Assembly: GCA_951406725.2 (NCBI GenBank)
Contig: OX597830.1
Location: forward strand, 55,738,001 to 55,802,000
DNA from: Octopus vulgaris
Lineage: Eukaryota
Reading direction: 5' to 3'
Length of the DNA stretch: 64,000 bases
Shown here: in pieces, positions 10,451 through 62,177 of the stretch
Position numbering within the stretch: the stretch's first letter is position 1
Layout of the letters: every line of letters starts with the position of its first letter
Notes under the pieces: generated by a model
What the model saw: only the letters and a program-made list of their open reading frames with translations
Database searches by the model: none
What the model was told of the DNA's origin: nothing
Made by a program: the position numbers and the translations under genes

Positions 10451-10579
10451 TTGTTATATTTCGGAATGGTCATTTTGCCAGTTTAGCCAATAAATGTATA
10501 AACGTATATATAAATATATATGTATATATATGTATGTATGTATATGTATATGTATATGTATATATATATATGGATGCAC

Positions 10580-13983: not shown

Positions 13984-16740
13984 TCAGGTGTAGTTTCGGC
14001 GGATTTCGGAAAGCATGAGGGCCTTAAAGGATGCAGTGTCATGGCAGTCAACAACTGACGCAGGCAGTTTATTCCATGCTTCAGCAACTCTGAGCGTGAA
14101 AAAATGTTTCCGAAAGTCATGGGAGCTGTGTTGTTTTCTGACTTTGTAGGCATGTCCACGTGTGTTAGACACATGGAGATCAAAAAGGTGTTCAGTGTTG
14201 TTGTTGGTGAGGTGGTTGATAACCTTGTGGGTGTTTACCAAGTCCGTCGCCAGACGCCGGAGCTTCAGTGAATCCATGCCCAGGGAAACAAGGCGCTCAG
14301 AATATGGTAGGTGTCTGATGGAGGGTATGCGTTTGGTTGCACGTCTCTGGACAGATTCCAGGAGGTCAATGTTCTGAGCAAGATAGGGATTCCAAACTGA
14401 TGATGCGAATTCCAAGTGTGGTCGTACCATAGCTGTATACAGTTTTAAATAGATGGCTGGAGAGCGGCTAACAAAAGTCTTGCTGAGTGATGCCAAGACA
14501 CCCTCGGCCTTCTTGACAATTTTAGAGATATGCTTTGTCCAACGCAAATCACTGCTGACAGTGATGCCTAGGTCACGCTCGCAAGAGGATTTCTTGATAT
14601 CAGTGTTGTGGAGGGAGTATGTGGACGCAGGGTTTTTTCTCCCAAAATGCATGGTGGTACACTTGTCCACAGCCAGTTTCAGTTGCCAGTCTGTGATCCA
14701 TTGCTGCATTGTGTCTAGGTCTGATTGCAGGAAAGAGTTGTAGACATCAGGATCAGTCCTCTTGATTTCAAGGTACAGCTTGATGTCGTCTGCATATTTC
14801 AATACTGTGGCATTCTTTAAATTGGCATCTATGTCATTAATGTATGCCACAAACAGGAGGGGACCAAGGACAGATCCCTGTGGTACACCCGATGACATCT
14901 CATATGGTGTAGAGTGCTGTCCTAGAACTGTGACTACCTCCTTTCGGCTGAGGATGAAGGATTTCAACCAGTTAAAAAGGTCATCCCCCACACCCATTGC
15001 AGAGAGTTTCACCATAAGCCTTTTGTGTGGCACAGAGTTGAAAGCCTTAGCAAACTCAAGGTAGACAACATCCACCCATGAGCCACTGTCAGTGATCTGA
15101 GTAATGTCCTCAAGGAACTCGACAAGCTGGTCACTGCAGCTGGAGCTAGGGACAAATCCATATTGTGAGGGTCGGATGAGACTGTGAGAGCTCCAGAAGT
15201 TCCAGAGTGTTTCTCTGACACACGATTCCATCAGTTTTGCAATACAGCTAGTGAGACTGACTGGGCGATAGTTGACAGGTGATGTGCGGTCACCCTTTTT
15301 GAACAGAGGAATGACACTGGCAGTTTTCCACTGCTCCGGAGTAGCACCATTGTTGAGACAGTACTGGAAGAAAATAGAAAGCTGGTGTAAAAGGAAGTGC
15401 CTGCCACGTTTGAGAAGCAGGTATGTAACTCCATCGAGACCAGGGGAGGCATAGTTGCGCTTATTTTGAAGGTGACGTCGCAGCATTGCAGATGTAAATT
15501 CCATAGTTGTTATGGAGTTTGCTGTTAGTGATGGTGAAGATGGTACATTTTGACTTTCAACAGTGAATATGTTTGCATAGCACTCGGCAATGAGTTCTGC
15601 GCATTCCTTGGGGTCGTCAGTGATCTGGTTTGTGTGAGGGTTGCGAAGAGGGCCCACTGGAGAGTGAGGTCTCTGCCTTGAATGCACATATTTCCAGAAA
15701 ACCTTGCTGTCAGGATTGGCTGCTATGCACTGTTCAAATTCAAGCACTGCATTTTTTGTCACTTGCTTGAGATGGTTGGAGGATTTATTCCGCTTCTTCC
15801 GGTTGGTGTCTGATTTATGCAACTTGTATTCCTGTTCAGCAGTCCGACGTTCCTTCCTGGCAAGTCGGACCGCTGAAGTTTCCCAAATTGCCCTTTTGGG
15901 GCGGTTCTTCTTTTTTTGTTTACGTGGCACTGATGCTGCACATGCTGCCCATATTGAGTCCAGGATACTCTGGAGTATAGTATTCACATCTCCAGAGTTG
16001 TAGAATTCACGCCAGTTTGGGTGCTGTAGTTCAGTGTGGTACAGGTTCCAATCTGCTCTCTTCCAATCGAAGGAAGCAGATTGGAGATGGTTCAGGTGTT
16101 TGTTGCCCGCAAGAGCCAGATTGGCGATGATCATAGCATGATCAGAGTCACCTAGAGGTTCCTCCGTAGTGCAATTGATAACCGCTTCAGGAGTTGTGGT
16201 GAAGAGCAGGTCCAAGGTGTTGTCGCCTCTTGTTGGAGAGGTGACTACTTGTGACCAGTTTGAGTCCAGCACAAGCTCAACAAAATCGTTTGCACTCTGT
16301 GGCCAATGGAAGGTTTCCCAATCGATCTCAGGATGATTGAAATCGCCTGCAATAAACACATAAGTGGCTGTTTTCCTGGCAGCAGCTCGGAGGATGTTGC
16401 AAAGCTGTGTCCTGATGGTAATTTGGGGGACGATAAACAACGCCAAGCAGGAGTGTTGACATGGTCATACGTACGTCACAGAAAAAACTTCTTCTTGTGA
16501 TTCGTTCAAATCGGCACAAGGAATTACCAAAAAATTTGAACGAACGTAGACCATCACACCACCACCACGGCGGTTAGTGCGGTCCTTACGGAAGAGGTTG
16601 TACCCCGTAATGTTGAAAACCCCATCACAGAGTAAGGAATGCGCCCATGTTTCCGTGACAGTGATGAAGTCAGGGTCAATACTTCTGCATTAAGGACAAC
16701 AATTTGTACCCTGCTCGCAGTTTATGATGGTGTGCAGAGG
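13984..16740 (-). pseudogene. LINE ORF2, AP endonuclease plus reverse transcriptase; N-terminus frameshifted, 820-aa open part 13984-16446
   Basis: TVTETW, GGGV, VYRPP (different frame), GDFN, LDL, SDH; NYRPVSL, GVPQGSVLGP, YADD, RDLG; motif A reads YLEFAKAFN instead of YLDFxKAFD. Confidence 0.92.
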
Positions 16741-16758: not shown

Positions 16759-17976
16759 TTAGTTTCCCTGAGTTGCTGTAGTCTTTTTAGTTATTGTGGG
16801 TAGAGAGCACTCAGACCAGCTGGTATCTCTCTTCCACGTTTCATCACTCTTGACAAATCTCCAGATTTGTCCATCTTCCCGAAGACTGAAGCTTTCCTGT
16901 AGAGCTGAGTTCCTATTCAGGGAAGCCGCTACACGTAGCTTCGGACGTACATCGGACGGTAAGCCTGGGTGTGTTCGGAAGGTGGTCCGATTTTCACGCC
17001 CAGCTTTAACTGAGGCCAGATGGTAAGAGGTTGCCTCAGTGTGGTCCGAAAAAGACAGCTTGATGAGCCTAGGTTTTGGGCCAGGTCGTCCAAGGCGGAT
17101 AGCACCCGTTGGGGGAACGCAGCCTAGGTCTTTGGCTGAGTTGGCAGCAAATGCCTGAAGATCAGCCATGTCTTCTGGCACCCCAATGGCAATGACTTCA
17201 TGGGTAGCAGAATCCGCGGTCTTAAATGCGACAAGAGGTACAGGTACAGGGAGGTTCTTTAGCAGAGCATTCCGATAAGACCCCTCATTGTGGAGTCCAA
17301 CCTGAATGGTTGCTTTTATTCCTGCTACTTCCCCTCTTAAAGCACAGATCGATTGTTGCAGTTCTGCAAGAACCGCACTGGTCAATTGGTGTTGTTGTTG
17401 TTGCTGCTGCTGCTCTGGTTGTGGTTGATTTTGTTGTTGCTGCTGTTGTTGTTGATGTTGTTGTTGCTGCTGCTCTGGTTGTGGTTGATTTTGTTGTTGC
17501 TGCTGTTGTTGTTGTTGCTGCTGCTCTGGTTGTGGTTGATTTTGTTGTTGCTGCTGTTGTTGTTGTTGCTGCTGCTGCTGCTCTAGCTGTGGTTGATTTT
17601 GTTGTTGCTGCTGTTGCTGTTCCGCCTCCTCCACGGGAGTGGAAGGGGGAGACACAATCGTCGGTTGTGGAGGCACGCAGGCCTGACACTGAAAAGTCCA
17701 AGATTTAAGCTGAACCATCTTCCAGAGTCTATCCATCATAGCATTATGATGGCTCTTTTTTTGGCCTGGGATCTTCTGAAAGTCCGTGGCACATTGGAGG
17801 CAGACAGAGATGAGGCATGTCCCACATTCGACCCAGCGATTACGGAACGTATTTTCGGGTTCCGTACAGATGTGGCAGGTGTGATTTTCTGGGCAGTGTT
17901 CTATTTTGGAGCAGCGACCAGTCTTATCGCACGCCGCTATGGATTCCACCATGGCGATTCTGTTGCTCCTGGTCAT
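16759..17976 (-). CDS. LINE ORF1p: PHD-like finger, polyQ repeats, coiled coil, RRM-like domain
   Basis: CHIC..CGTC..CLQC..CQAC; IAIGVPE..IRLGRPGPKPRLIKLSF; open 405 aa directly upstream of ORF2. Confidence 0.85.
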   Translation of the reverse strand: MTRSNRIAMVESIAACDKTGRCSKIEHCPENHTCHICTEPENTFRNRWVECGTCLISVCLQCATDFQKIPGQKKSHHNAMMDRLWKMVQLKSWTFQCQACVPPQPTIVSPPSTPVEEAEQQQQQQQNQPQLEQQQQQQQQQQQQQNQPQPEQQQQQQQQQQQNQPQPEQQQQQHQQQQQQQQNQPQPEQQQQQQQHQLTSAVLAELQQSICALRGEVAGIKATIQVGLHNEGSYRNALLKNLPVPVPLVAFKTADSATHEVIAIGVPEDMADLQAFAANSAKDLGCVPPTGAIRLGRPGPKPRLIKLSFSDHTEATSYHLASVKAGRENRTTFRTHPGLPSDVRPKLRVAASLNRNSALQESFSLREDGQIWRFVKSDETWKRDTSWSECSLPTITKKTTATQGN

Positions 17977-18649
17977 CCGTAGAGACAGAAAATGTAAACA
18001 ACAATACGATAAAAGTAAAATATAAAATATTTGTTTTTGATTCGTTCTTTTTTTGTGTATATTCCTTTTGTTCTTAAATATTGCGTGTGTATATACACAT
18101 GTTTCGTTCTTTTTTGTGTATATTCCTTTTTTTCTTAAATATTGCGTGTGTATACATGAAAGGATTTGTGCGTATGTTTAGTGTAGACACGGAGAAAGTT
18201 TGTAAACAGAAATGAAATCAGTGATTTTTTGATTTTTTTTTGCAGTGTAGTCCGTCACATTAAATAGTGTGATTTATTTTCACTCTGCACGTATATATAT
18301 GTGTGCTACAAGTATCTATGTATGTATGTATGTCACTGCTTTATAAATTTTGGACGTACTTACTGTCGTTCAACGTTTTCTTTTACCCTCAACTACACGT
18401 GGTGAATTCTTCCATTGTAGATCTGTGGTGGTCATCGTCGTAATATTTTCTCTTTAGTTTCCTCGCCAAATTGATTATACCCTAATCAAACCATTTGTTT
18501 GTCTACTTGTGAATGTGTCTTTGTTTTAGTAACATTGTATTTTCCTCCTTTTCCTTTTTCATTCCCATATTATATGGAACTTCGGTGGACAGCTACTCTA
18601 AGACTCCAGCTGCCAGGTCGCCATTAAACAGGATATATATATATATATA

Positions 18650-25889: not shown

Positions 25890-26418
<529 letters not shown>

Positions 26419-27114
26419 CATATTTCTTTCTTTTTTTTTATAAGTATAGTCTTCTATCAACCATACGTGTCTTTTTAGATATTTGCGTGGATTTTAGACC
26501 TTTGGTGTCCCGTGTTAAATTGTAGCGGAAATTACAAGTGAAGTAGATTTAAACAATGGAAGTATGTTGGACCTTGGCGCATCGTTAATCATGCTTCTGT
26601 TCTCTGATAACACAATAAAAGTTTAAGATGGGATTAAAGTAATCCAGTGCTGGACATGTCCTTCCTCATACCTGAAAGTTTTTCATTGCACTAATGGCGG
26701 GTAAACACTACCACGCTAACTTGAAAATGACCAGGTGCTGTATCAATCTCAAAAACGCATTTTTCCCAACTGAATCAACCAGTCGCACGTAAAGTGCCTT
26801 GCGCAAGGGCGCAATGCGCCTCTTGGATCGGGAATCGAAACAGCGACCGTATAAACGAGAATACATTTGCTTAACCACTCTCTTTACTCTTTAGTCTTTT
26901 ACTTGTTTCAGTCATTTTGACTGCGGCCATGCTGGACCACCTTTAGTCGAGCAAATCAACCCCGGGACTTATTCTTTGTAAGCCCAGTACTTATTCTATC
27001 GGTCTCTTTTGCCGATCCGCTAAGTGACGGGGACGTAAACACACCAGCATCGGTTGTCAAGCAATGCTAGGGGGACAAACACAGACACAGAAACACACAC
27101 ATACATATATATAT

Positions 27115-28001
27115 GTAGATAACTTAAAATTGTATGATAGATTGCCGTCAATTCATTCCCTCTTACCTGTTTGTGTCTGCCTTCCAATTGCTGTTTTTAC
27201 TGAGATCTCCCTTTTTAGTAGAAGAAATAGCTATAACTCTTTGACTGCTATTTCTAAATTCGGTATGTGGTAAGGCAATTCGTTGCCAAACCCTTTATTG
27301 CTTAGTATTACTTAAATTTTCCTCGAATGAGGCTTTTACATGCCGAAGACTACTTGGTGTAATTGATAATTATTCCAAATTAATTAATTTCACCCTTCAT
27401 TATTACGGATAACCATATTTTATCTCAGTAGATGACCACAGCATCTTGTTTTGGCTACACGCGGGTGGGAAGGGCTGGTGACACAATCTTTTCATTCACT
27501 CATTGAATTTGGTGATACTAGTTGCGGATTCTAGCTCGCTCTGATACTGAGTTGAGTTGATGCCTTCTAGTATCTCAAAATTCAATATATAATCATTTAT
27601 GATTATAGTATTCTACGCTGAAGAGAAAAGAAGTTCTTGGTAAGATAGAATTATTTAATATTTAATTCTTATGCTTTCCTAAAAACTTGATTTCGAAACG
27701 TACGTCCGTAGATAACTTAAAATTGTATGATAGATTGCCGTCAATTCATTCCCTCTTACCTGTTTGTGTCTGCCTTCCAATTGCTGTTTTTACTGAGATC
27801 TCCTTTTTAGTAGAAGAAATAGCTATAACTCTTTGACTGCTATTTCTAAATTCGGTATGTGGTAAGGCAATTCGTTGCCAAACCCTTTATTGCTTAGTAT
27901 TACTTAAATTTTCCTCGAATGAGGCTTTTACATGCCGAAGACTACTTGGTGTAATTGATAATTATTCCAAATTAATTAATTTCACCCTTCATTATTACGG
28001 A

Positions 28002-28005
<4 letters not shown>
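27115..28005 (+). mobile_element. Partial-tandem (1.5-mer, 593-bp period) non-coding element with hammerhead; retrozyme or PLE pLTR type
   Basis: 27115-27413 directly repeated at 27708-28005; HHR at the junction. Confidence 0.88.
27612..27712 (+). ncRNA. Type I hammerhead ribozyme, canonical core
   Basis: TCTACG-CTGAAGA-GAAA..TTTC-GAAAC-GTAC-GTC|CGTAGA; predicted cut after 27706. Confidence 0.85.
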
Positions 28006-28077
<72 letters not shown>

Positions 28078-28252
28078 CATATATATACGACAGGCTTCTT
28101 TCAGTTTCCGTCTACCAAATCCACTCACAAGGCATTGGTCGGCCCGGGGCTATAGCAGAAGACACTTGCCCAAGATGCCACGCAGTGGGACTGAACCCGG
28201 AACCATGTGGTTGGTTAGCAAGCTACTTACTACACAGCCACTCCTGCCCCAT

Positions 28253-28574
28253 TAATTTTTTTTTTTTTATGCGCCCTTTTTCAAGCCTAGCCAGGCCCAT
28301 GGGCCCGGTTTCCCGGTTTCTGTGGCGTATGTTTTCCCCCCAGCTGGACGGGATGCCAGTCCATCGCAGCTTTACTCAAGAAACAGGAAGAAAGAGTGAG
28401 TGAAAGTTGGAGCGAAAGAGTACAACAGGGGTCGCCACTACCCCCTGCCGGAGCCTCGTGGAGCTTTAGGTGTTTTCGCTCAATAAACACACACAACGCC
28501 TGGTCTGGGAATCGAAACCGCGATCCTCCGACTGCGAGTCTGCTGCCCTAACCACTGGGCCATTGCACCTCCAC
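28253..28574 (-). mobile_element. SINE B head with an alternative (V-domain-like) tail
   Basis: B head 28375-28574; tail contains CTGGACGGGATGCCAGTCCATCGCAG; T-run at 28253. Confidence 0.75.
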
Positions 28575-36445: not shown

Positions 36446-36809
36446 AAGAAGAAGAAGAAGAAGAAGAATGATAATGAAGAGGAATAAGAGGAGGAATAGG
36501 AGGAGGAGAAGCAGGATAATTAATAAGTAAAACACATCATCACCATCGTAATCATCATCATCATCATTATTAATATCATCATCCTCCTATAACTATGACA
36601 TTCTTTATTAGTTAGCAGGGGTGTTTTCTAGAGGTTTGGTGACAACAAATTTCCTTATTATATCTAAAGAATATTTCTTAGGATAGGCACAGGATTGCAC
36701 CATTCTACTTTTCTAATAACCTTTCCCTTGACGAAGCAAAAGCTGTTTTCATTTGGGCTTTTATTTTCTCACGTGGTGATTTACTGGGCCTTCTACTACT
36801 TCTTGTTCG

Positions 36810-38678
36810 ACTTCTTCCTTTTCTTCTTCTTCTTCTTCTTCTTCTTCTTCTTCTTCTTCTTCTTCTTCTTCTTCTTCTTCTTCTTCTCCTCCTTCTTCTT
36901 CTCCTTCGTCTTCTTTTTCTTCTTTTTTCTTCTTCTTCTTCTTTTTCTTCTTCTTCTTCTCCTTCTTCGTCTTCTTCTTTTTTTTCTTCTCCTTCTTCTT
37001 CTTCTTCTTCTTCTTCTTTTTCTTCTTCTTCTTCTTCTTCTCCTCCTTCTTCTTCTCCTTCGTCTTCTTTTTCTTCTTTTTTCTTCTTCTTTTTCTTCTT
37101 CTTCTCCTTCTTCGTCTTCTTCTTTTTTTTCTTCTTCTCCTTCTTCTTCTTCTTCTTCTTCTTCTTCTTCTTCTTCTTCTTCTTCTCCTCCTCCTCCTCT
37201 TCCTTCTTCTTCTTCGTCTTATTCTTCTTTTTCTTCTTCTTCTTTGTCTTCTTCTTTTTCTTCTTCTTCCTCTCCTCCTTCTTCTTCTCCTTCTTCGTCT
37301 TCTTCTTCTTTTTCTTCTTCTTCTTCTTCTTCGTCTTCTTCTTCTTCTTTTTCTTCTTCTTCTCCTTCTTCTTCTTCTCCTCCTCCTCCTCCTCTTCCTT
37401 CTTCTTCTTCGTCTTCTTATTCTTCTTCTTTGTCTTCTTCTTTTTCTTCTTCTTCCTCTCCTCCTTCTTCTTCTCCTTCTTCGTCTTCTTCTTCTTTTTC
37501 TTCTTCTTCTTCTTCTTCGTCTTCTTCTTCTTTTTCTTCTTCTTCTCCTTCTTCTTCTTCTCCTCCTCCTCCTCCTCCTTCTTCTTCTTCTTCTTCTTCT
37601 TCTTCTTCTTCTTCTTCTTCTTCTTCTTCTTCTTCTCCTCCTTCTTCTTCTCCTTCGTCTTCTTTTTCTTCTTTTTCTTCTTCTTCTTCTTTTTCTTCTT
37701 CTTCTCCTTCTTCGTCTTCTTTTTTTTCTTCTTCTTCTTTTTCTTCTTCTTCTTCTTCTTTTTCTTCTTCTTCTTCTTCTTCTCCTCCTCCTTCTTCTTC
37801 TCCTTCGTCTTCTTTTTCTTCTTTTTTTCTTCTTCTTCTTTTTCTTCTTCTTCCTCCTCTTCTCTTCTTTTTTTCTTCTTCTCCTTCTTCTTCTTCTTCT
37901 TCTTCTTCTTCTCCTCCTCCTCCTCCTCTTCTTCTTCTTCTTCGTCTTATTCTTCTTTTTCTTCTTCTTCTTTGTCTTCTTCTTTTTCTTCTTCTTCCTC
38001 TCCTCCTTCTTCTTCTCCTTCTTCGTCTTCTTCTTCTTTTTCTTCTTCTTCTTCTTCTTCGTCTTCTTCTTCTTCTTTCTTCTTCTTCTCCTTCTTCTTC
38101 TTCTCCTCCTCCTCCTCCTCTTCTCTTCTTCTTCTTCTTCTTCTTCTTCTTCTTCTTCTTTGTCTTCTTCTTTTTCTTCTTCTTCCTCTCCTCCTTCTTC
38201 TTCTCCTTCTTCGTCTTCTTCTTTTTCTTCTTCTTCTTTTTCTTTTTCTCTTCTTCTTTTCTTCTTCTTTTTCTTCTTCTTCCTCTCTTCTTCTTCTCCT
38301 TCTTCGTCTTCTTCTTCTTTTTCTTCTTCTTCTTCTTCGTCTTCTTCTTCTTCTTCTTCTTCTTCTCCTTCTTCTTCTTCTTCTCCTCCTTCTTCTTCTT
38401 CTTCTTCTTCTTCTTCTTCTTCTTCTTCTTCTTCTTCTTCTTTCTTCTTCTTCTTCTTCCTCCTTCTTCTTCTCCTTCTTCGTTCTTCTTCTTTTTCTTT
38501 TCTTCTTCTTTTTCTTTTTCTTCTTCTTCTCCTTCTTCTTCTTCTCCTTCTTCTTCTCCTTCTTCGTCTTCTTTTTCTTCTTCTTCTTCTTCTTCTTCTT
38601 CTTATTATTATTATTATTATTATTCGTCTTCTTCTTCTTTTTCTTTTTCTTCTTCTCCTTCTTCATCTTCTTTTCTTC

Positions 38679-38710
<32 letters not shown>

Positions 38711-39026
38711 CTTTTTCTTCTTCTTTTTCTTCTTCTTCTTCTTCTTTTTCTTCTTCTTCTTCTTTTTCTTCTTCTTCTTCTTTTTCTTCTTCTTCTTTGT
38801 CTTCTTCATTTTCTTATTATTATTCTTCTTCGTCTTCTTCTTTTTCTTCCTTTCTTCTTCTTCTTCTTCTTCTTTTTCCTCTTCTTCTTTTTCTTCTTTT
38901 TCTTCTTCTCTTTCTTCTTCTTCGTCTTCTTCTTCGTCTTCTTCTTCGTCTTCTTTTTCTTCTTCTTCTTATTCTTCTTCGACTTCTTTTTCTTCCTCTT
39001 CTTCTTCTTCTTCTTCTTCTTCTTCT
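36810..39026. repeat. ~2.2-kb degenerate (TTC)n polypyrimidine tract
   Basis: Direct inspection; source of the spurious 834-aa ORF. Confidence 0.97.
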
Positions 39027-48798: not shown

Positions 48799-49142
48799 AT
48801 GGTAGATGTATACGAGAGAAAGACCAATGTTGAGGGCGAAGAGCAATTTGTCGTCAAACAGCTGATGCACAGTTTGAGTAATTATGGACGCATTCAGTTT
48901 GGAGAATGTTAAAGGAATATTTATCTCTCTCTAGAAATGATGTAGCGTTTACGGCGGCGGCGGCGGCGGAAACTGGAGTTTCAAGATTTTCGGTAAACAG
49001 AATAACCAAAGCGTGCAGTGACCTCGTTTTTGTAACGAAGGGAATGAGCCGCGTTGCGTTTCTTCCTGAAGAGCAGCGTATCTGTAGTCCCCACTCCGAC
49101 GAATACTCATCTATTAGATTGTAGTAATAGAGGTGAATGCTA

Positions 49143-52302: not shown

Positions 52303-52304
52303 AT

Positions 52305-52800
52305 AAGTAAATAAATGGAGTTGAACGCAGATGTTATTCAAATTCTTTTACTTTCGACATATGTTTCGAAGACAACATTGGGGTTTTTTTCCAAAGCAAT
52401 AAACGGTGTAAAATAATGTAATCCTCTTATCAGGAAAGAAAGAAAACCCATCTCAACAACAAGACATTATAGCAATTTTGATGACTGCATAAATGATAAA
52501 CAGAACGCTATTAAGTATTTTAAAAAATAACCGTCAAAGGCAGACCATAGAAAGAGAAAGGGCAAAGAAATAATAAGTAGAGAACAAATAAAGGAGAAAT
52601 ATAGAGTGATATGTTGGTTGAAAAAATGTTCAAAGGCTTGGAAGTAGATTTCTCTATTGAAGTAAAGTGCAAGGTGAACTAAATGTTCAAACTATACAGA
52701 CTGGTATAAATCACTTATATGAGCTAAGGTTATGTTTCTGCCAGTGCTTACATTTGTAAGATCGCTCTATAAGTGTGTTAACAAGGTGATTCTTAGAGAA
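52305..52800 (-). mobile_element. PLE 3' end with decayed hammerhead (52351-52438)
   Basis: NHLVNTLIERSYKCKHWQKHNLSSYK*, homologous to ORF 60376-60915; CTTTC-CTGATAA-GAGGAT..GTCTTC-GAAAC-ATAT-GTC-GAAAG. Confidence 0.8.
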
Positions 52801-52898
52801 GAGAAGAGGTGATTAGTACCAAGGGGGCGGGGATAATTACACTATGCATAGTTTAAATTTAAACTATCCTCTATTATTATCTTCAATTTACCTATGTT

Positions 52899-52967
<69 letters not shown>

Positions 52968-53179
52968 ATTATATAATATAAGTAATATTTAATTCATTTA
53001 TTTATTTAAATTATTTATTTATATAGTCTGTTCAAGTGCTGTAGAAATAAAATTTTGTGGATATTTGATTCAGGGGTCGGGGTTCAGTATTTCATTTTAT
53101 TGAAGGTAAAATTACTTAACTCCACGTTCATCATATGTGTTTAATAATTCATCTCTAGACTGTAGTAGTTTTATAAATT

Positions 53180-54100
53180 ATGTTAATAAATTATGCATAA
53201 TAAACACATTTTATTCCCAATATTATAGGAGTGGAATCTACCTATTATACCCCAATTAAGGGTGTACTCTCTTTTTCTAGATTTCAATTCACATATATAT
53301 TTACTTTAGCCTGTAGACTTACCTAAATTAGGAATTTTGAAGGTCTGGTAGTGTTGGGATATTCTTTTTTTAATTTTATTAACTGTTGATCCAATATAAG
53401 CCTTATTTATAATTTTATCATTATTGTTCTTAGAGCTTACTATACATTTAAAAATTACTTGATTAATATTACAATTATTAGAGTGCTTACATTTAGTCTT
53501 ATCACAACATGAATATTTTTCTATCTGTTGATTAAGACTCCCATCACTATTGGTAATATTATGGCTAGAGCTATTATTTATTGTGCTATTATAATAATTA
53601 TTTAATTTCTCATTATTTATAAAGGAAATGATATTACCTACATTTCTCGATGTTGAATATCCCACTCTTATGGTTTTATTGGAAAATATATTTGAATAAC
53701 TGTTGTCCTTCGTAAAAACCATTTTTACTATTTTAAGTGTCTTCTTAATAATATTAGTCATCACTTGAGCCCCATACGGAATAATAAACCATATAATATC
53801 CTTCTAATTTCTATATTTTTATATTATCACTATTAGACATCATCGGTATTAAATTGTTGTTTTTAGGTATATTATATCTCTGCTTGTATAATTTACTATA
53901 TTTCTTACTATTGCTCATATTCTCATTACTAACATTACTATTATTATTGTAATCATTAATAACAACTATATTGTTTTTATCTATATTTAGTTTGTTGTAT
54001 TGTCTTTTATTATTATTCATATTTTTACTGTTAGAATTATTATTAGTTTTATTAGGATTATTTGTTGTTATTATTATTAATGTGTTCGTAGCAATTATAG
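53180..54100 (-). pseudogene. PLE fragment (linker and GIY-YIG endonuclease)
   Basis: IWFIIPYG, IRVGYST, QVIFKC..AYIGST..KKRISQH. Confidence 0.8.
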
Positions 54101-56093: not shown

Positions 56094-57199
56094 TGTGTCT
56101 GTGTGCGTGTGCGTGTGTGCTTGTGTGTGTGTTACACCCTTAGTTGTTAAACTTTTTAACTTTCTTCTGAGTTGGCGAACAAATAAATGACGTATCAATG
56201 ACGCAAACTGCTTGAAATTTTTCAAACAAAACTACGTTTTAAAATACAGAATTTTAGAAAAATATATAAAACAATTGTTCACTCCATTTTTATTTCTCAT
56301 ATTTGTGAATAACAAAATATGTAACGAATAAAATCTTTTTTTACTCACTCAAAAATTAACATGGATTTTTCTAAAGCCTCAAAATATATTTTTAAAACAT
56401 GATACGCAAAAGTTTTTTTTTGCTTGTTCACATGCAAAAGCATGTAATACTTTCGTGCTTTAAATATCATATGTATAAATCACACGAAATCAAGCGGCTG
56501 TTCGTTAACGAATCTTAATGTTGAGGAATAAATGAATTAATCAATTTATACAGATACCCCCAACACAATTTGTTTGGTGTGATAGCGGACTATTTCCAAG
56601 TAGCAAATAGCTAAAGTAACAATTTCGAATTTATAACACCATCAACAATAAATTATGAGTTCGAAACGCGAGTGTAAATACAGTTACTGCTCGTAAATAT
56701 CAAGGATTTATTTCCACGTGTCCAACTCTGTTCTGCGGTTCAGGATAGAGTTCTGCTTCCCAATAAAGTATGCCTTTGCAATCTGGAACCTTACGGCATC
56801 TATTCTCGTCTGCGGCATCTATACGTCTGCTAAAATAGCAAGCTGATGTAGATATAGCTGAAACTCTTCCAGGATATGAACACTTGTGTATTCTTCGCCG
56901 TGTAAGTGAACCGTGAGGTCCTTCCTAAATTTCTCGGACATCTTTTGTTCGGCTTCATGTTTTTACGCATTACCCCCCTCTTTTTGTCGTCATCCACAGC
57001 TTGTTACCTTTTTTCGGCACCCATTGACATCACATCATCGCTTGATAACGGGGTTGTCAATTGTTGTCACCCACGACCATACCCAGAGCCCAGAGACCGG
57101 AAACAGTAGTTTCGTGGTGGCGGTGTTGCTGCTGTTGTTATTGTTGTTGTTGCTGCTGTTATATATATCGAATGACTCTGGATATCCAGACCATAACAG

Positions 57200-58247: not shown

Positions 58248-58278
<31 letters not shown>

Positions 58279-58305
58279 TAAAGTAATAAAGTTAATGTCT
58301 GATCA

Positions 58306-58369
58306 TAGAGTGACCAGTAGTTTCGCCTCCACGAAGGCTGTGGCCTCGCGGGCGACTCATCAGACTCTA
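58306..58369 (-). ncRNA. Type I hammerhead ribozyme, canonical core, within inverted repeat 58282-58448
   Basis: TAGAGT-CTGATGA-GTC..GGC-GAAAC-TACTG-GTC|ACTCTA. Confidence 0.82.
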
Positions 58370-58521
58370 GTCCAAAGACCACGGGGCTACAACCTTCGTG
58401 GAGGCGAAACTACTGGTCACTCTATGATCAGACATTAACTTTATTACTCTTTAATACTTTACTGCTCTATACTTTAATTAGTTTTAATGTGTGCTTCTTT
58501 TTCGGATATATAATACATTGA

Positions 58522-58585: not shown

Positions 58586-58695
58586 AAATAAGCAACAAGT
58601 ATATCTTCGGTAATTTGGTACGATCGTTTCATGCTACTTCATTTTATTAAGCATTTTACCAAATTACCGAAGATATACTTGTTGCTTATTTTGAT
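58582..58695. repeat. 39-bp inverted repeat with partial hammerhead in the spacer
   Basis: Arms 58582-58620 and 58657-58695; minus ATGCT..AGCAT-GAAAC-GATC-GTA. Confidence 0.75.
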
Positions 58696-58791
58696 TATAA
58701 TCACCCCATGGATTTATATGGATAATACCATACAAAATTCTGGTGCCTCTGACATAAGTACCATATTCATTTGAATCTAAATTTTGCTGAA

Positions 58792-59761: not shown

Positions 59762-60088
59762 GTGTATATATGTATATATATATATGCATATATGTATGTA
59801 TATACGTATGTATGTGTGTATATATATATATATATATGTATGTGTATATATATATATGTATGTATATATGTATATATATATATATATATAAATAGATGAG
59901 TGTATTTTTACCTTGTTAACAATTAACACGGAAAAAATAAATAAATAGTTATCAGGGTAGCAAAAATCTCACAAGTAAAGATGTAACTCCTTGTTTATAA
60001 AGGTAGAAACTTCGTGTTTACGTTGAATATTTTGAATAGTATATGAATAAATAAATGGAGTTTAACGCAGGTGTAATCAAATATTTTT

Positions 60089-60174
60089 ACTTTCGACACA
60101 TGTTTCGAAAATTCCACTGATACTATTCAAAAGAATAAATGGTATAAACAATGCAATCTTCTCCTCAGGAAAGT
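60089..60174 (-). ncRNA. Type I hammerhead ribozyme in PLE pLTR
   Basis: ACTTTC-CTGAGGA-GAAGATT..AATTTTC-GAAAC-ATGT-GTC|GAAAGT. Confidence 0.85.
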
Positions 60175-60375
60175 GAAAAAAGCGAAACTCGTCGATAAGA
60201 CATTTTAGCAAAAAATGATGGATTTGTATAGCGATAGACAGAACGCTATTAATATTGTTTAAACAAACGTTATATGACATAAAGTCATAAGTAGCTAACA
60301 GAAAGAGTAGGGATACCAATAGTGAATGTTAAATATAAAGGAAATTAAAGTTTAAATTATATATAATGATAGAGA

Positions 60376-62002
60376 CTACTTATATGCACTAAATGTATGT
60401 TTTTGCCAATGCTTACATCTGTATGCTCGCTCTATAACCGTGTTTACTAGAGTATTTTTAGAAAAAATAATGAAAAATAGCTCAGAATTGCAGAGAAGAC
60501 AGAATTCCTTGCCTTTGTCATATGGTATCGAAATTGAGAGAATCAACCATTCTAAATGAAATTGTTCATTGTGGTCTTTTAAATCCAAAATCAGTTTGCT
60601 GAGACCGGTACTATTACGTTTATTTCTATCCCTAAATGTTGAATAATGGATAGAAATTATTTTAGATAACTCTAACGATGTGTTTCCAATGTAAAATCGT
60701 ACTTTATTACGAATACTGATTATACACTGGTATATAGAATTTCTAATCTTAGAGTTACTTGACGGAAACTTAATTCTATTGGAATTGACTTCAGATACAA
60801 TAACCTTGTTATTAATATTTCTAGAGGGTTGGATGGTATTGGCTAAATTAATGTTAGTATTAGTAAATGTATTAATATTTAACAGTTTGTTATTATGTGA
60901 AGAGATAATTTGCAAGAGATTTTTTTGTGTTTGAAAAACCTATCCTAACCTTATGTGAATTGATAATAGAGTAATATCTAGAATTGTTTGGAAAATTCCT
61001 AGCAATAGCTTGACGAAGCAGCAGTGGGAGATTAGATTTAATTTGTCTCCCGTAAGGAATTATTAACCAAATATTTTTACTAGTATTCATAGCGTAATTA
61101 CTTTTGAAGGTGTTATATTTACTTTTAGATCGATAATAGGGGATTAAATAAGGGTTATCTGCCTTCATTCGCTTTGTATCGGTGCGTAAGTTTTGTTTGT
61201 TATCAATAATTCTTTTACGACTAGAAATCTTATCTACATTATTGAATTTACAATTAGACTGAGCAGAATCAATGTAGAAAATTTTCTCTGTATAACCTGC
61301 TTTAATTAAGGCAGAGTTATAGAATTCAGCGTTATTATTGAAAATATCAACATTAGCAGATAATTTAGATAATCTAAATGAAATATTCTTAACTAAGTTC
61401 TTAGTAATTGCTCCAGGACGATTACTAAATTTGCTAATGTACTTAAGATTGGTCAACGGTTTACGATATGGGAAGTAAGAGTCACTGTGTAAATTAAGCG
61501 TAATATCTAAAAAGTTGGCCTTCTTCATATCGTCATCAAAAACGATTTTTAAGCCCATTCTACTGAAAAAATTAACTAAACTATTCTTAAATTTTTGTAC
61601 CTTCTGGTTGGAAACATTTTGGAGGTAAAGTAAACAATCATCACGATATAGACCTTCATAAATGTTAGGGAACTCTTCAGCCATTTCAAAAAGAATATAC
61701 ATACAGACTGAATCAGCTACCTGTGCTGAATCAGAACTTCCCATTGGTATATCGAAACTATCTGGTGTGTCTTTACGGACCCACAACTTATCATCAAATT
61801 TAATAATAGATCTTCTGGCTGGCAACACAATATTAATTTCTTCTCGGGTGAGACCAGCTTTGTTATGAGCAAGCCAAAGTGCCTTATTAAGTACTATTGG
61901 ATTGATAGATGAATAAAAATTGGAAATATCAAACTGGATAAACTTAGTACTCGTCTTATTGGTAATAGAACTAAACCAGTCAACTACTTCAAACGAATTA
62001 GT
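60376..62002 (-). pseudogene. PLE polyprotein (RT plus C-terminal GIY-YIG), frameshift near 60920
   Basis: FIQFDISNFYSSI, FDIPMGSSDSAQ, GLYRDD, NFLDITL; SIYQC..FYIGNT, CLLC..RCKH. Confidence 0.9.
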
Positions 62003-62124
62003 CCTGAGGAGAAGATTGCATTGTTTATACCATTTATTCTTTTGAATAGTATCAGTGGAATTTTCGAAACATGTGTCGAAAGTAAAAGTATTTGATTACA
62101 CCTGCGTTAAACATTTATTTATTC

Positions 62125-62177
<53 letters not shown>

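Follow-up and report, generated by a model that had tools for sequence, protein, structure and literature searches.

An 891-nt insert in Octopus vulgaris DNA is read here as a recent copy of a many-copy octopus family that resembles the non-LTR retrozymes and that was likely written into a (TA)n microsatellite by the enzyme of a Hydra-clade Penelope-like element (PLE), from RNA that had likely been cut by its own ribozyme. We give this combined reading a probability of roughly 0.55. The insert lies in a stretch of 64,000 nt, called the window in the following, and all coordinates refer to this stretch. The parts of the insert are:

27115-28005 (+): whole insert, 891 nt, 1.5 units of a 593-nt non-coding repeat that bears a hammerhead
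27115-27413 (+): repeat 1, 299 nt, with the 3' arm of stem I only and without the ribozyme core (self-alignment)
27414-27611 (+): middle segment, 5' of the ribozyme (fold and bridged join)
27612-27712 (+): type I hammerhead motif, predicted to be cut after C27706 (descriptor scan and fold)
27708-28005 (+): repeat 2, 298 nt, running into (TA)n (self-alignment)
27397-27435 (+): predicted hairpin across the join of repeat 1 and the middle segment (fold)

The two repeats show no substitution over 298 aligned bases and are distinguished by a single indel in a C/T run, where repeat 1 has CCC (27209-27211) and repeat 2 has CC (27802-27803). The period is 593 upstream of this indel and 592 downstream. 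The unit has a GC content of 34.6%, and its longest stop-to-stop stretch measures 56 aa in the linear insert and 66 aa when the unit is closed as a circle; as no stretch exceeds 66 aa, a coding role of the insert was rejected. Repeat 1 starts at the equivalent of G27708, and C27707, with which the 3' cut product begins, lies 1 nt earlier. At this place the window has a T (27114) that can be assigned to the TA run. By chance, an insert would begin this close to the cut site (1 nt or less) in about 3 of 593 cases. At the other end, the four bases that follow the 3' junction (ATAT) also match the loop of the unit. The sequence-only reading had described a young 593-bp 1.5-mer without an ORF, composed of two near-identical direct repeats of about 298 bp, the first of which begins 1 nt away from the equivalent of the cut site. 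The repeat boundaries, the period and the reading frames bear this description out, and its age estimate is supported by the absence of substitutions between the repeats, although their identity could partly reflect gene conversion or assembly polishing.

The hammerhead is encoded on the plus strand. Its 6-bp stem I pairs UCUACG (27612-27617) with CGUAGA (27707-27712), and the core consists of CUGAAGA (27618-27624), GAAA (27695-27698) and a GUC triplet with the predicted cut after C27706. Stem II (27625-27694) is 70 nt long and forms an extended, interrupted hairpin with a G10.1-C11.1 closing pair and a 4-bp base, while stem III comprises 2 bp closed by GUAC and is part of the 8-nt palindrome ACGUACGU. 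The core requirements of the type I hammerhead are present, i.e. CUGANGA, GAAA and NUH together with the pairs G10.1-C11.1 and A15.1-U16.1. Folding models indicate that the three helices can form, with helix I open-ended and with a stem III that would grow from 2 bp in the monomer to 8 bp in a dimer; in the fold of the full 891 nt, the pair probabilities for stem I and the base of stem II range from 0.79 to 0.98. A strict descriptor (stem I at least 6, stem II at least 4), the thresholds of which were chosen with the motif in view, gave two matches in the window, one in the insert and one at 60168, versus none in 300 dinucleotide shuffles of the whole window. With a looser descriptor, three real matches stand against six in 300 shuffles. 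Rfam returned no hammerhead match for the insert, either at the gathering score or at E<=10, which is likely due to the 70-nt stem II; the Rfam score is an aid and does not form part of the hammerhead definition. No loop 1-loop 2 tertiary contact was assignable in this interrupted hairpin, the tip of which differs by 7-nt repeats between family copies, as seen in the contig alignments described below. The 6-bp stem I, the long stem II and the palindromic loop named in the sequence-only reading are confirmed; its term "canonical" suits the core only, as the 70-nt stem II has no ordinary loop 2. Motif-pattern scans elsewhere yielded one match in metagenome contigs, none in prokaryote genomes and ten in viral contigs. 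These 11 metagenome and viral loci were rejected as relatives, since in none of them can both stems form or does the match exceed 21 nt.

With a stem III of 2 bp, the ribozyme of the insert is predicted to need a second ribozyme in order to cut. Ribozymes with a weak stem III have been reported to cut in the double-hammerhead form (PMC4209133; axolotl data in PMC7229834), and the unconstrained co-fold of two insert ribozymes is a double hammerhead (-48.0 versus 2 x -16.7 kcal/mol). The three loop III versions found in the window (in the insert, at 60 kb and at 52 kb) differ from each other, and each is self-complementary. Because the upstream repeat begins past the cut site, the insert has one ribozyme in 27115-28005, with no core upstream, and is likely unable to release a 593-nt unit alone. 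The sequence-only reading had proposed an active element at this locus, which is not upheld: Li, Clavereau and Pollet (2026; bioRxiv 10.64898/2026.07.22.740005) require two ribozymes for an active non-LTR retrozyme, and among the predicted retrozyme dimers that they tested only one in nine cleaved. We regard the insert most readily as a daughter copy of young age.

Public sequencing runs place the unit in a larger family. In 20 of 24 listed runs, covering 11 studies and four organism codes, 0.59-0.81 of 59 sampled words of the unit are present. Contigs of four of these 20 holder runs (X2, X8, X9 and X10), none of them a DNA run of organism B, were aligned to the rotation 27250-27842 of the unit, which keeps both critical sites internal, and matching contigs numbered 1206 in X2, 114 in X9, 36 in X10 and 2 in X8. 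Such data consist of variant contigs and are silent on copy number, expression, strand, RNA ends and circles. The X2 contigs are spread over four identity bands (353 at 99% or more, 398 at 95-99%, 362 at 90-95% and 93 below 90%) and therefore represent more than a single locus, so that the single-copy alternative named in the sequence-only reading gives way to a family. Both the repeat/middle join at 27413/27414 and the cut site are bridged by contigs in X8, X9 and X10, which carry three organism codes. As these joins recur in several runs, the unit is truly cyclic or tandem and does not reflect a chance join of fragments. Judged by its sequences, the family has moved recently, as the insert has repeats without substitutions and near-identical contigs occur in several organism codes.

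The ends of the contigs were inspected for 21 of 112 loose ends. Three of them enter (TA)n, at 27404, 27406 and 27411, and the insert's own end is the equivalent of 27413; two contigs begin at 27808. A second copy that starts at the cut site was not seen among these 21 ends, and the fixed 5' end is therefore documented by the window copy. Among 40 of 42 substitutions and 9 indels, none falls within 27693-27711. A family copy with two ribozymes was found neither in the window nor in the contigs of the four runs. The contig depth of the repeated half relative to the middle has a median ratio of 5.8 in X2, 3.4 in X9 and 1.2 in X10; depth cannot rank the parts of the unit, and as a lead only, these ratios would fit an excess of half-unit copies in X2 and X9 and a uniform unit in X10. 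One X10 contig tracks the unit to 27707 and then departs into other sequence, possibly representing a copy or transcript with its 3' end at the cut site. Two X2 contigs track the unit to 27720, 13 nt beyond the cut site, and continue into about 140 nt of unrelated sequence, possibly from a sister family or an autonomous partner that shares the ribozyme.

The RNA of the unit is strongly self-paired. The cut-to-cut unit folds at -162.7 kcal/mol, compared with -120.7 +/- 6.9 for shuffled sequences (z -6.13; none of 100 shuffles as stable), and both halves add to this stability (z -4.4 and -2.9). The antisense strand is no less stably folded than the sense strand (z -6.4 versus -5.4). When 40 substitutions of the family were placed on the predicted fold, 20 were unpaired, 12 kept a pair and 8 broke a pair, whereas random placement breaks 14.4 +/- 2.4 (P 0.007); the test favours the window alleles, on which the predicted fold is based. 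No two-sided compensatory change occurs among the 40 substitutions, and T27692C breaks a pair in stem II. The catalytic core carries none of the 40 substitutions, with about two expected, which is not significant alone. The predicted hairpin at 27397-27435 has a 7-nt loop (27413-27419; unpaired probability 0.90-0.99) that includes AUAU, and the 3' ends of the window copy and of other copies (27404-27413) correspond to its 5' arm or the edge of its loop. A long-range pairing is predicted between positions 27438-27500 of the middle segment and about 27720-27790 in the repeated half.

The surroundings of the insert are those of a SINE that is interrupted by a microsatellite:

26880-27092 (-): 3' half of the host SINE, approximate bounds (many copies in the window)
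27093-27114: left part of the target microsatellite, (CA)/(TA) (window repeats)
28006-28087: right part of the target microsatellite, (TA)n of about 41 units (tandem-repeat listing)
28088-28262 (-): 5' half of the host SINE, tRNA-like head with a B-box-like motif at 28197, approximate bounds (window copies)

The earlier placement of the insert inside a SINE microsatellite is confirmed, the target being the central (CA)/(TA) tract of a minus-strand SINE. Three other window copies of the SINE pair have spacers of 33, 143 and 219 nt at the place of the insert. ARAGORN detected no tRNA gene in the head of the host SINE. As the insertion lies inside (TA)n, a target-site duplication is unreadable. 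Within the (TA)n of another member of the same SINE family, a unique stretch of about 50 nt is located at about 26166-26212, of which 39 nt are identical at 10455-10493; this is possibly the stub of another TA-targeting element.

The window also contains PLEs, which the sequence-only reading did not mention and which share the ribozyme build of the insert:

59890-62129 (-): decayed, 5'-truncated PLE with Hydra-clade motifs (protein matches, descriptor and fold)
61999-60926, approximate (-): reverse transcriptase (RT) of this PLE (protein search)
60780-60379, approximate (-): GIY-YIG-type endonuclease of this PLE (protein search)
60174-60089 (-): hammerhead of this PLE, with the predicted cut after 60095 (descriptor scan)
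62002-62129: inverted 131-bp upstream fragment of this PLE
52303-52900 (-): second truncated copy of the same PLE family, with the endonuclease end, the 3' region and a hammerhead (alignment)

In the copy at 59890-62129, the hammerhead follows about 200 nt after the stop of the frame and its cut site lies 205 nt before the (TA)n end. It combines a 6-bp stem I and a 55-nt stem II with an 8-nt self-complementary stem-loop III, as in the insert. The copy at 52303-52900 has a changed core, CUGAUAA at 52433, and the loop ACAUAUGU, and it ends in a microsatellite beside a SINE half. The best named protein matches of the longer copy are from Octopus bimaculoides, O. sinensis and Argonauta hians. Pfam detects its RT weakly (E 4e-4, below the cut-off) and its endonuclease not at all. 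The endonuclease shows CxxC before E and CxH after N, and among 41 PLE-type protein matches CxCx5C is found in 14, DK[T/S] in 15 and DKG in one. The Hydra clade has been described with those motifs, and nearly all of its members, Hydra-1_Obim included, insert into (TA)n (PMC8557442). The RT motifs resemble by eye the Hydra rows examined in the supplement of that paper. By its motifs, which are the basis here in place of a tree, the PLE family of the window fits the Hydra clade. The arrangement of 5'-truncated frame, ribozyme and inverted upstream fragment is also documented for PLEs (PMC8557442). Against the proposed reading, Naiad PLEs likewise favour (TA)n and occur in Octopus; they are described without canonical hammerheads (PMC8557442). 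The window PLE copies are decayed and cannot be the donor of the enzyme.

The unit was also considered as a derivative of the window's own PLE family and rejected, as it has no detectable homology to the 3' repeat region of that family outside the core: in four tests, 78-172 of 200 shuffles reach the observed scores, for stem II 9 of 200 do so, and in the PLE-PLE positive controls none of 200. Two further loci on the minus strand belong to this inventory. At 53309-53803, within about 52960-54100 and between two (TA)n runs, there is a more decayed PLE fragment with an RT end and an endonuclease, which matches protein P0001 at E 2e-8. At 58276-58448, another family is represented by a type I hammerhead rich in GC (CUGA at 58363, predicted cut after 58312), which sits in a nearly perfect foldback of 170 nt (-124.8 kcal/mol); this foldback terminates within a SINE microsatellite and looks like a PLE-type 3' end plus its inverted copy. 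Other repeats of the window include a young-looking LINE (13984-16464 and 16759-18177, minus strand), in which an 826-aa endonuclease-RT frame (Pfam RVT_1, E 6e-35, and Exo_endo_phos_2) is preceded by a 472-aa frame with a glutamine-rich tandem repeat. Short MITE-like palindromic foldback repeats occur at 58600-58780, about 48969-48982 and 57100-57113, one of them with (TA)n on both sides, and a 2.2-kb (CTT)n-type array of about 750 units extends over 36790-39026.

In the mechanism that we propose, a donor locus with two or more ribozymes would be transcribed into head-to-tail RNA, in which the ribozymes would pair via their palindromic loop III and form double hammerheads. As cutting likely needs two ribozymes, only some junctions would be cut. 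A PLE endonuclease would then nick (TA)n, and the DNA end would prime on the AU-rich arm or loop 299 nt past the cut site; copying would cross one uncut junction and halt at the cut 5' end, leaving 1.5 units. Such a linear RNA would explain why the insert starts exactly where it does, why its internal junction is clean and why it spans 1.5 units. The 5' end fits a ribozyme-cut RNA, as the sequence-only reading had expected for the cDNA of a self-cleaved transcript, and its exact position at the cut site favours a linear, cut RNA over a closed circle as the template. A link between animal retrozymes and PLEs has been proposed before (PMC7229834; bioRxiv 10.64898/2026.07.22.740005). More tentatively, and with odds that we place well short of even, the AU loop of the structured RNA could serve as an internal priming site for the telomerase-related Hydra-clade enzyme, comparable to a telomerase template, which would lead to insertions of 0.5, 1.5 or 2.5 units in fixed phase, with the hairpin setting their 3' end and the ribozyme cut their 5' end.

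The same family and PLE partner could also have used a circular RNA of 593 nt, either ligated or nicked and clamped by stem I, on which the enzyme would prime at the loop, run a full lap and stop at the junction on the second pass. Circles have been suggested as templates of more-than-unit copies (PMC4209133), and mussel, coral and axolotl retrozymes form them (PMC7229834). Both repeats of the insert share the allele at every family-variable site except for one indel, as if a template had been read twice, and the closed unit is predicted to fold stably (-157.7 kcal/mol) with its ribozyme arms free to pair. Yet that indel, CCC versus CC, is itself a polymorphism of the family, which suits two different units or slippage. 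A 629-nt X8 contig exceeds the length of its unit and the deepest X10 contigs span both joins, but a more-than-unit contig can also be obtained from tandem DNA. Moreover, a ligated bond gives the enzyme no cause to stop at the cut site on its second pass, and jumps from one end to the other should have left variant junctions, of which none is present among the variants listed. We therefore regard a circular template for this copy as possible but rather doubtful. Under the linear-RNA reading, circles may still exist in the family and would regenerate multimers, although the window copy needs none. A cycle of linear RNAs only could merely shorten arrays, so that the family as a whole likely depends on circles or recombination at some point.

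A different explanation dispenses with an independent unit and views the insert as two 5'-truncated 3' ends (299 and 592 nt) of an undescribed autonomous PLE, arranged head to tail. In microsatellites, PLEs often insert as partial tandems with a 5' truncation (PMC8557442), and truncated PLEs with the same ribozyme build are present in the window. Such a join at 27413/27414 should be a one-off, however, yet it is bridged in three runs with three organism codes and falls inside a predicted hairpin. In addition, none of the 41 PLE-type proteins matches the insert in tblastn (best E 0.18), and the 3' region of the window PLE is not unusually structured (z -0.8), in contrast to the strongly structured unit. 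This makes a PLE-fragment origin improbable.

Only a slim chance is left for a satellite-like or otherwise DNA-level mobile repeat that spread by unequal exchange or rolling-circle DNA transposition, without an RNA intermediate, and that carries the ribozyme by chance. Li et al. discuss unequal crossover as a way in which the terminal sequence of PLEs is amplified locally (bioRxiv 10.64898/2026.07.22.740005), but here the 5' end coincides with an RNA cut site, the insert stands alone in its microsatellite as a dispersed copy and the variants tend to spare predicted RNA pairs. No inverted repeat joins the two ends of the insert, either among the 25 longest listed or in the self-search. An assembly artefact, or unique sequence that was duplicated locally in tandem and resembles a hammerhead by chance, would agree with the single copy that the self-search found in the 64-kb window, with the missing Rfam match and with the ability of assembly polishing to make repeats near-identical, but is very improbable given the absence of strict-descriptor matches in 300 shuffles, the 1206 variant contigs in X2 and the holder runs in 11 studies, the last two of which refute single-copy status.

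The insert family likely works like a non-LTR retrozyme, in the sense that it has the sequence-level features of this class. As in metazoan non-LTR retrozymes, the unit is non-coding, low in GC and strongly self-paired, carries a type I hammerhead, is present in many copies and shares its genome with PLEs (PMC7229834). These features, together with the head-to-tail arrangement, support the earlier label "retrozyme-like". The weak stem III and the palindromic tetraloop are also found in the axolotl ribozyme HHR_Amex1, which cuts as a dimer (PMC7229834). Different from the metazoan units, which measure 170-400 nt (coral 220-245 nt, mussel 350-390 nt, axolotl 330/350 nt), the octopus unit has 593 nt and a 70-nt stem II, and the insert is a dispersed 1.5-mer with one ribozyme and ends tied to (TA)n instead of a dimer or array (PMC7229834). 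Octopus and other cephalopods receive no mention in the main text of PMC7229834. The retrozymes of Li et al. have consensus lengths of 51-972 bp, a range that includes 593, and occur as dispersed solo and dimer copies together with PLEs; the classes that they list include no mollusc (bioRxiv 10.64898/2026.07.22.740005). They show pLTR sequence homology in Xenopus (bioRxiv 10.64898/2026.07.22.740005), whereas no homology of the octopus unit to the one PLE family of the window was found.

With Hydra-clade PLEs such as Hydra-1_Obim, the insert shares a sense type I hammerhead near the 3' end and the (TA)n target, whereas an ORF for RT and GIY-YIG, as in the autonomous elements, is missing; the 5' truncation and the inverted upstream fragment of this clade are seen in the window PLE at 62129-59890 (PMC8557442). 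The Hydra ribozymes in file S2 of PMC8557442 have short stem II loops and other forms of stem III, unlike the insert and the window PLE. A build with a long stem II and an 8-nt palindrome is absent among the Hydra rows examined in that file, and a search of the supplement of the same paper with three 12-nt core motifs of the window gave no match. PLE hammerheads resemble the insert in their 6-bp helix I, the G10.1-C11.1 pair, a helix III of 1-2 bp, a palindromic loop and predicted activity as dimers, but the helix II of the insert is far above their 4-8 bp and an extra base between positions 9 and 10.1 is lacking (PMC4209133). Plant LTR retrozymes have a similar unit size and direct repeats of about 300 bp that flank a non-coding middle; they carry a type III ribozyme in each LTR, a PBS and a PPT, produce 4-bp target duplications and use Gypsy enzymes (PMC4918200). 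A plant-type LTR retrozyme was rejected for the insert, which has a single type I ribozyme with its core outside the repeats, at the join of the middle segment and the repeat.

Retrozymes are already known from many animals, and the class itself is unsurprising. No report of a cephalopod retrozyme was found in the open-licence literature searched. With the insert family, a likely cephalopod case is added, marked by a stem II of unusual length, and descriptors designed for short loops would likely miss hammerheads of this kind. The mechanism by which PLEs are copied was called still undefined by Craig et al. (2021; PMC8557442), and the insert family could show how PLE enzymes prime and how they make more-than-unit copies. 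Young copies with defined ends, together with a ribozyme build and a (TA)n target that are common to an octopus PLE lineage, offer a direct route for testing the partnership between retrozymes and PLEs. If true, priming guided by the loop would link a retrozyme with a single PLE clade, and the place of priming and the linear or circular form of the template in PLE copying would become readable from genomic copies.
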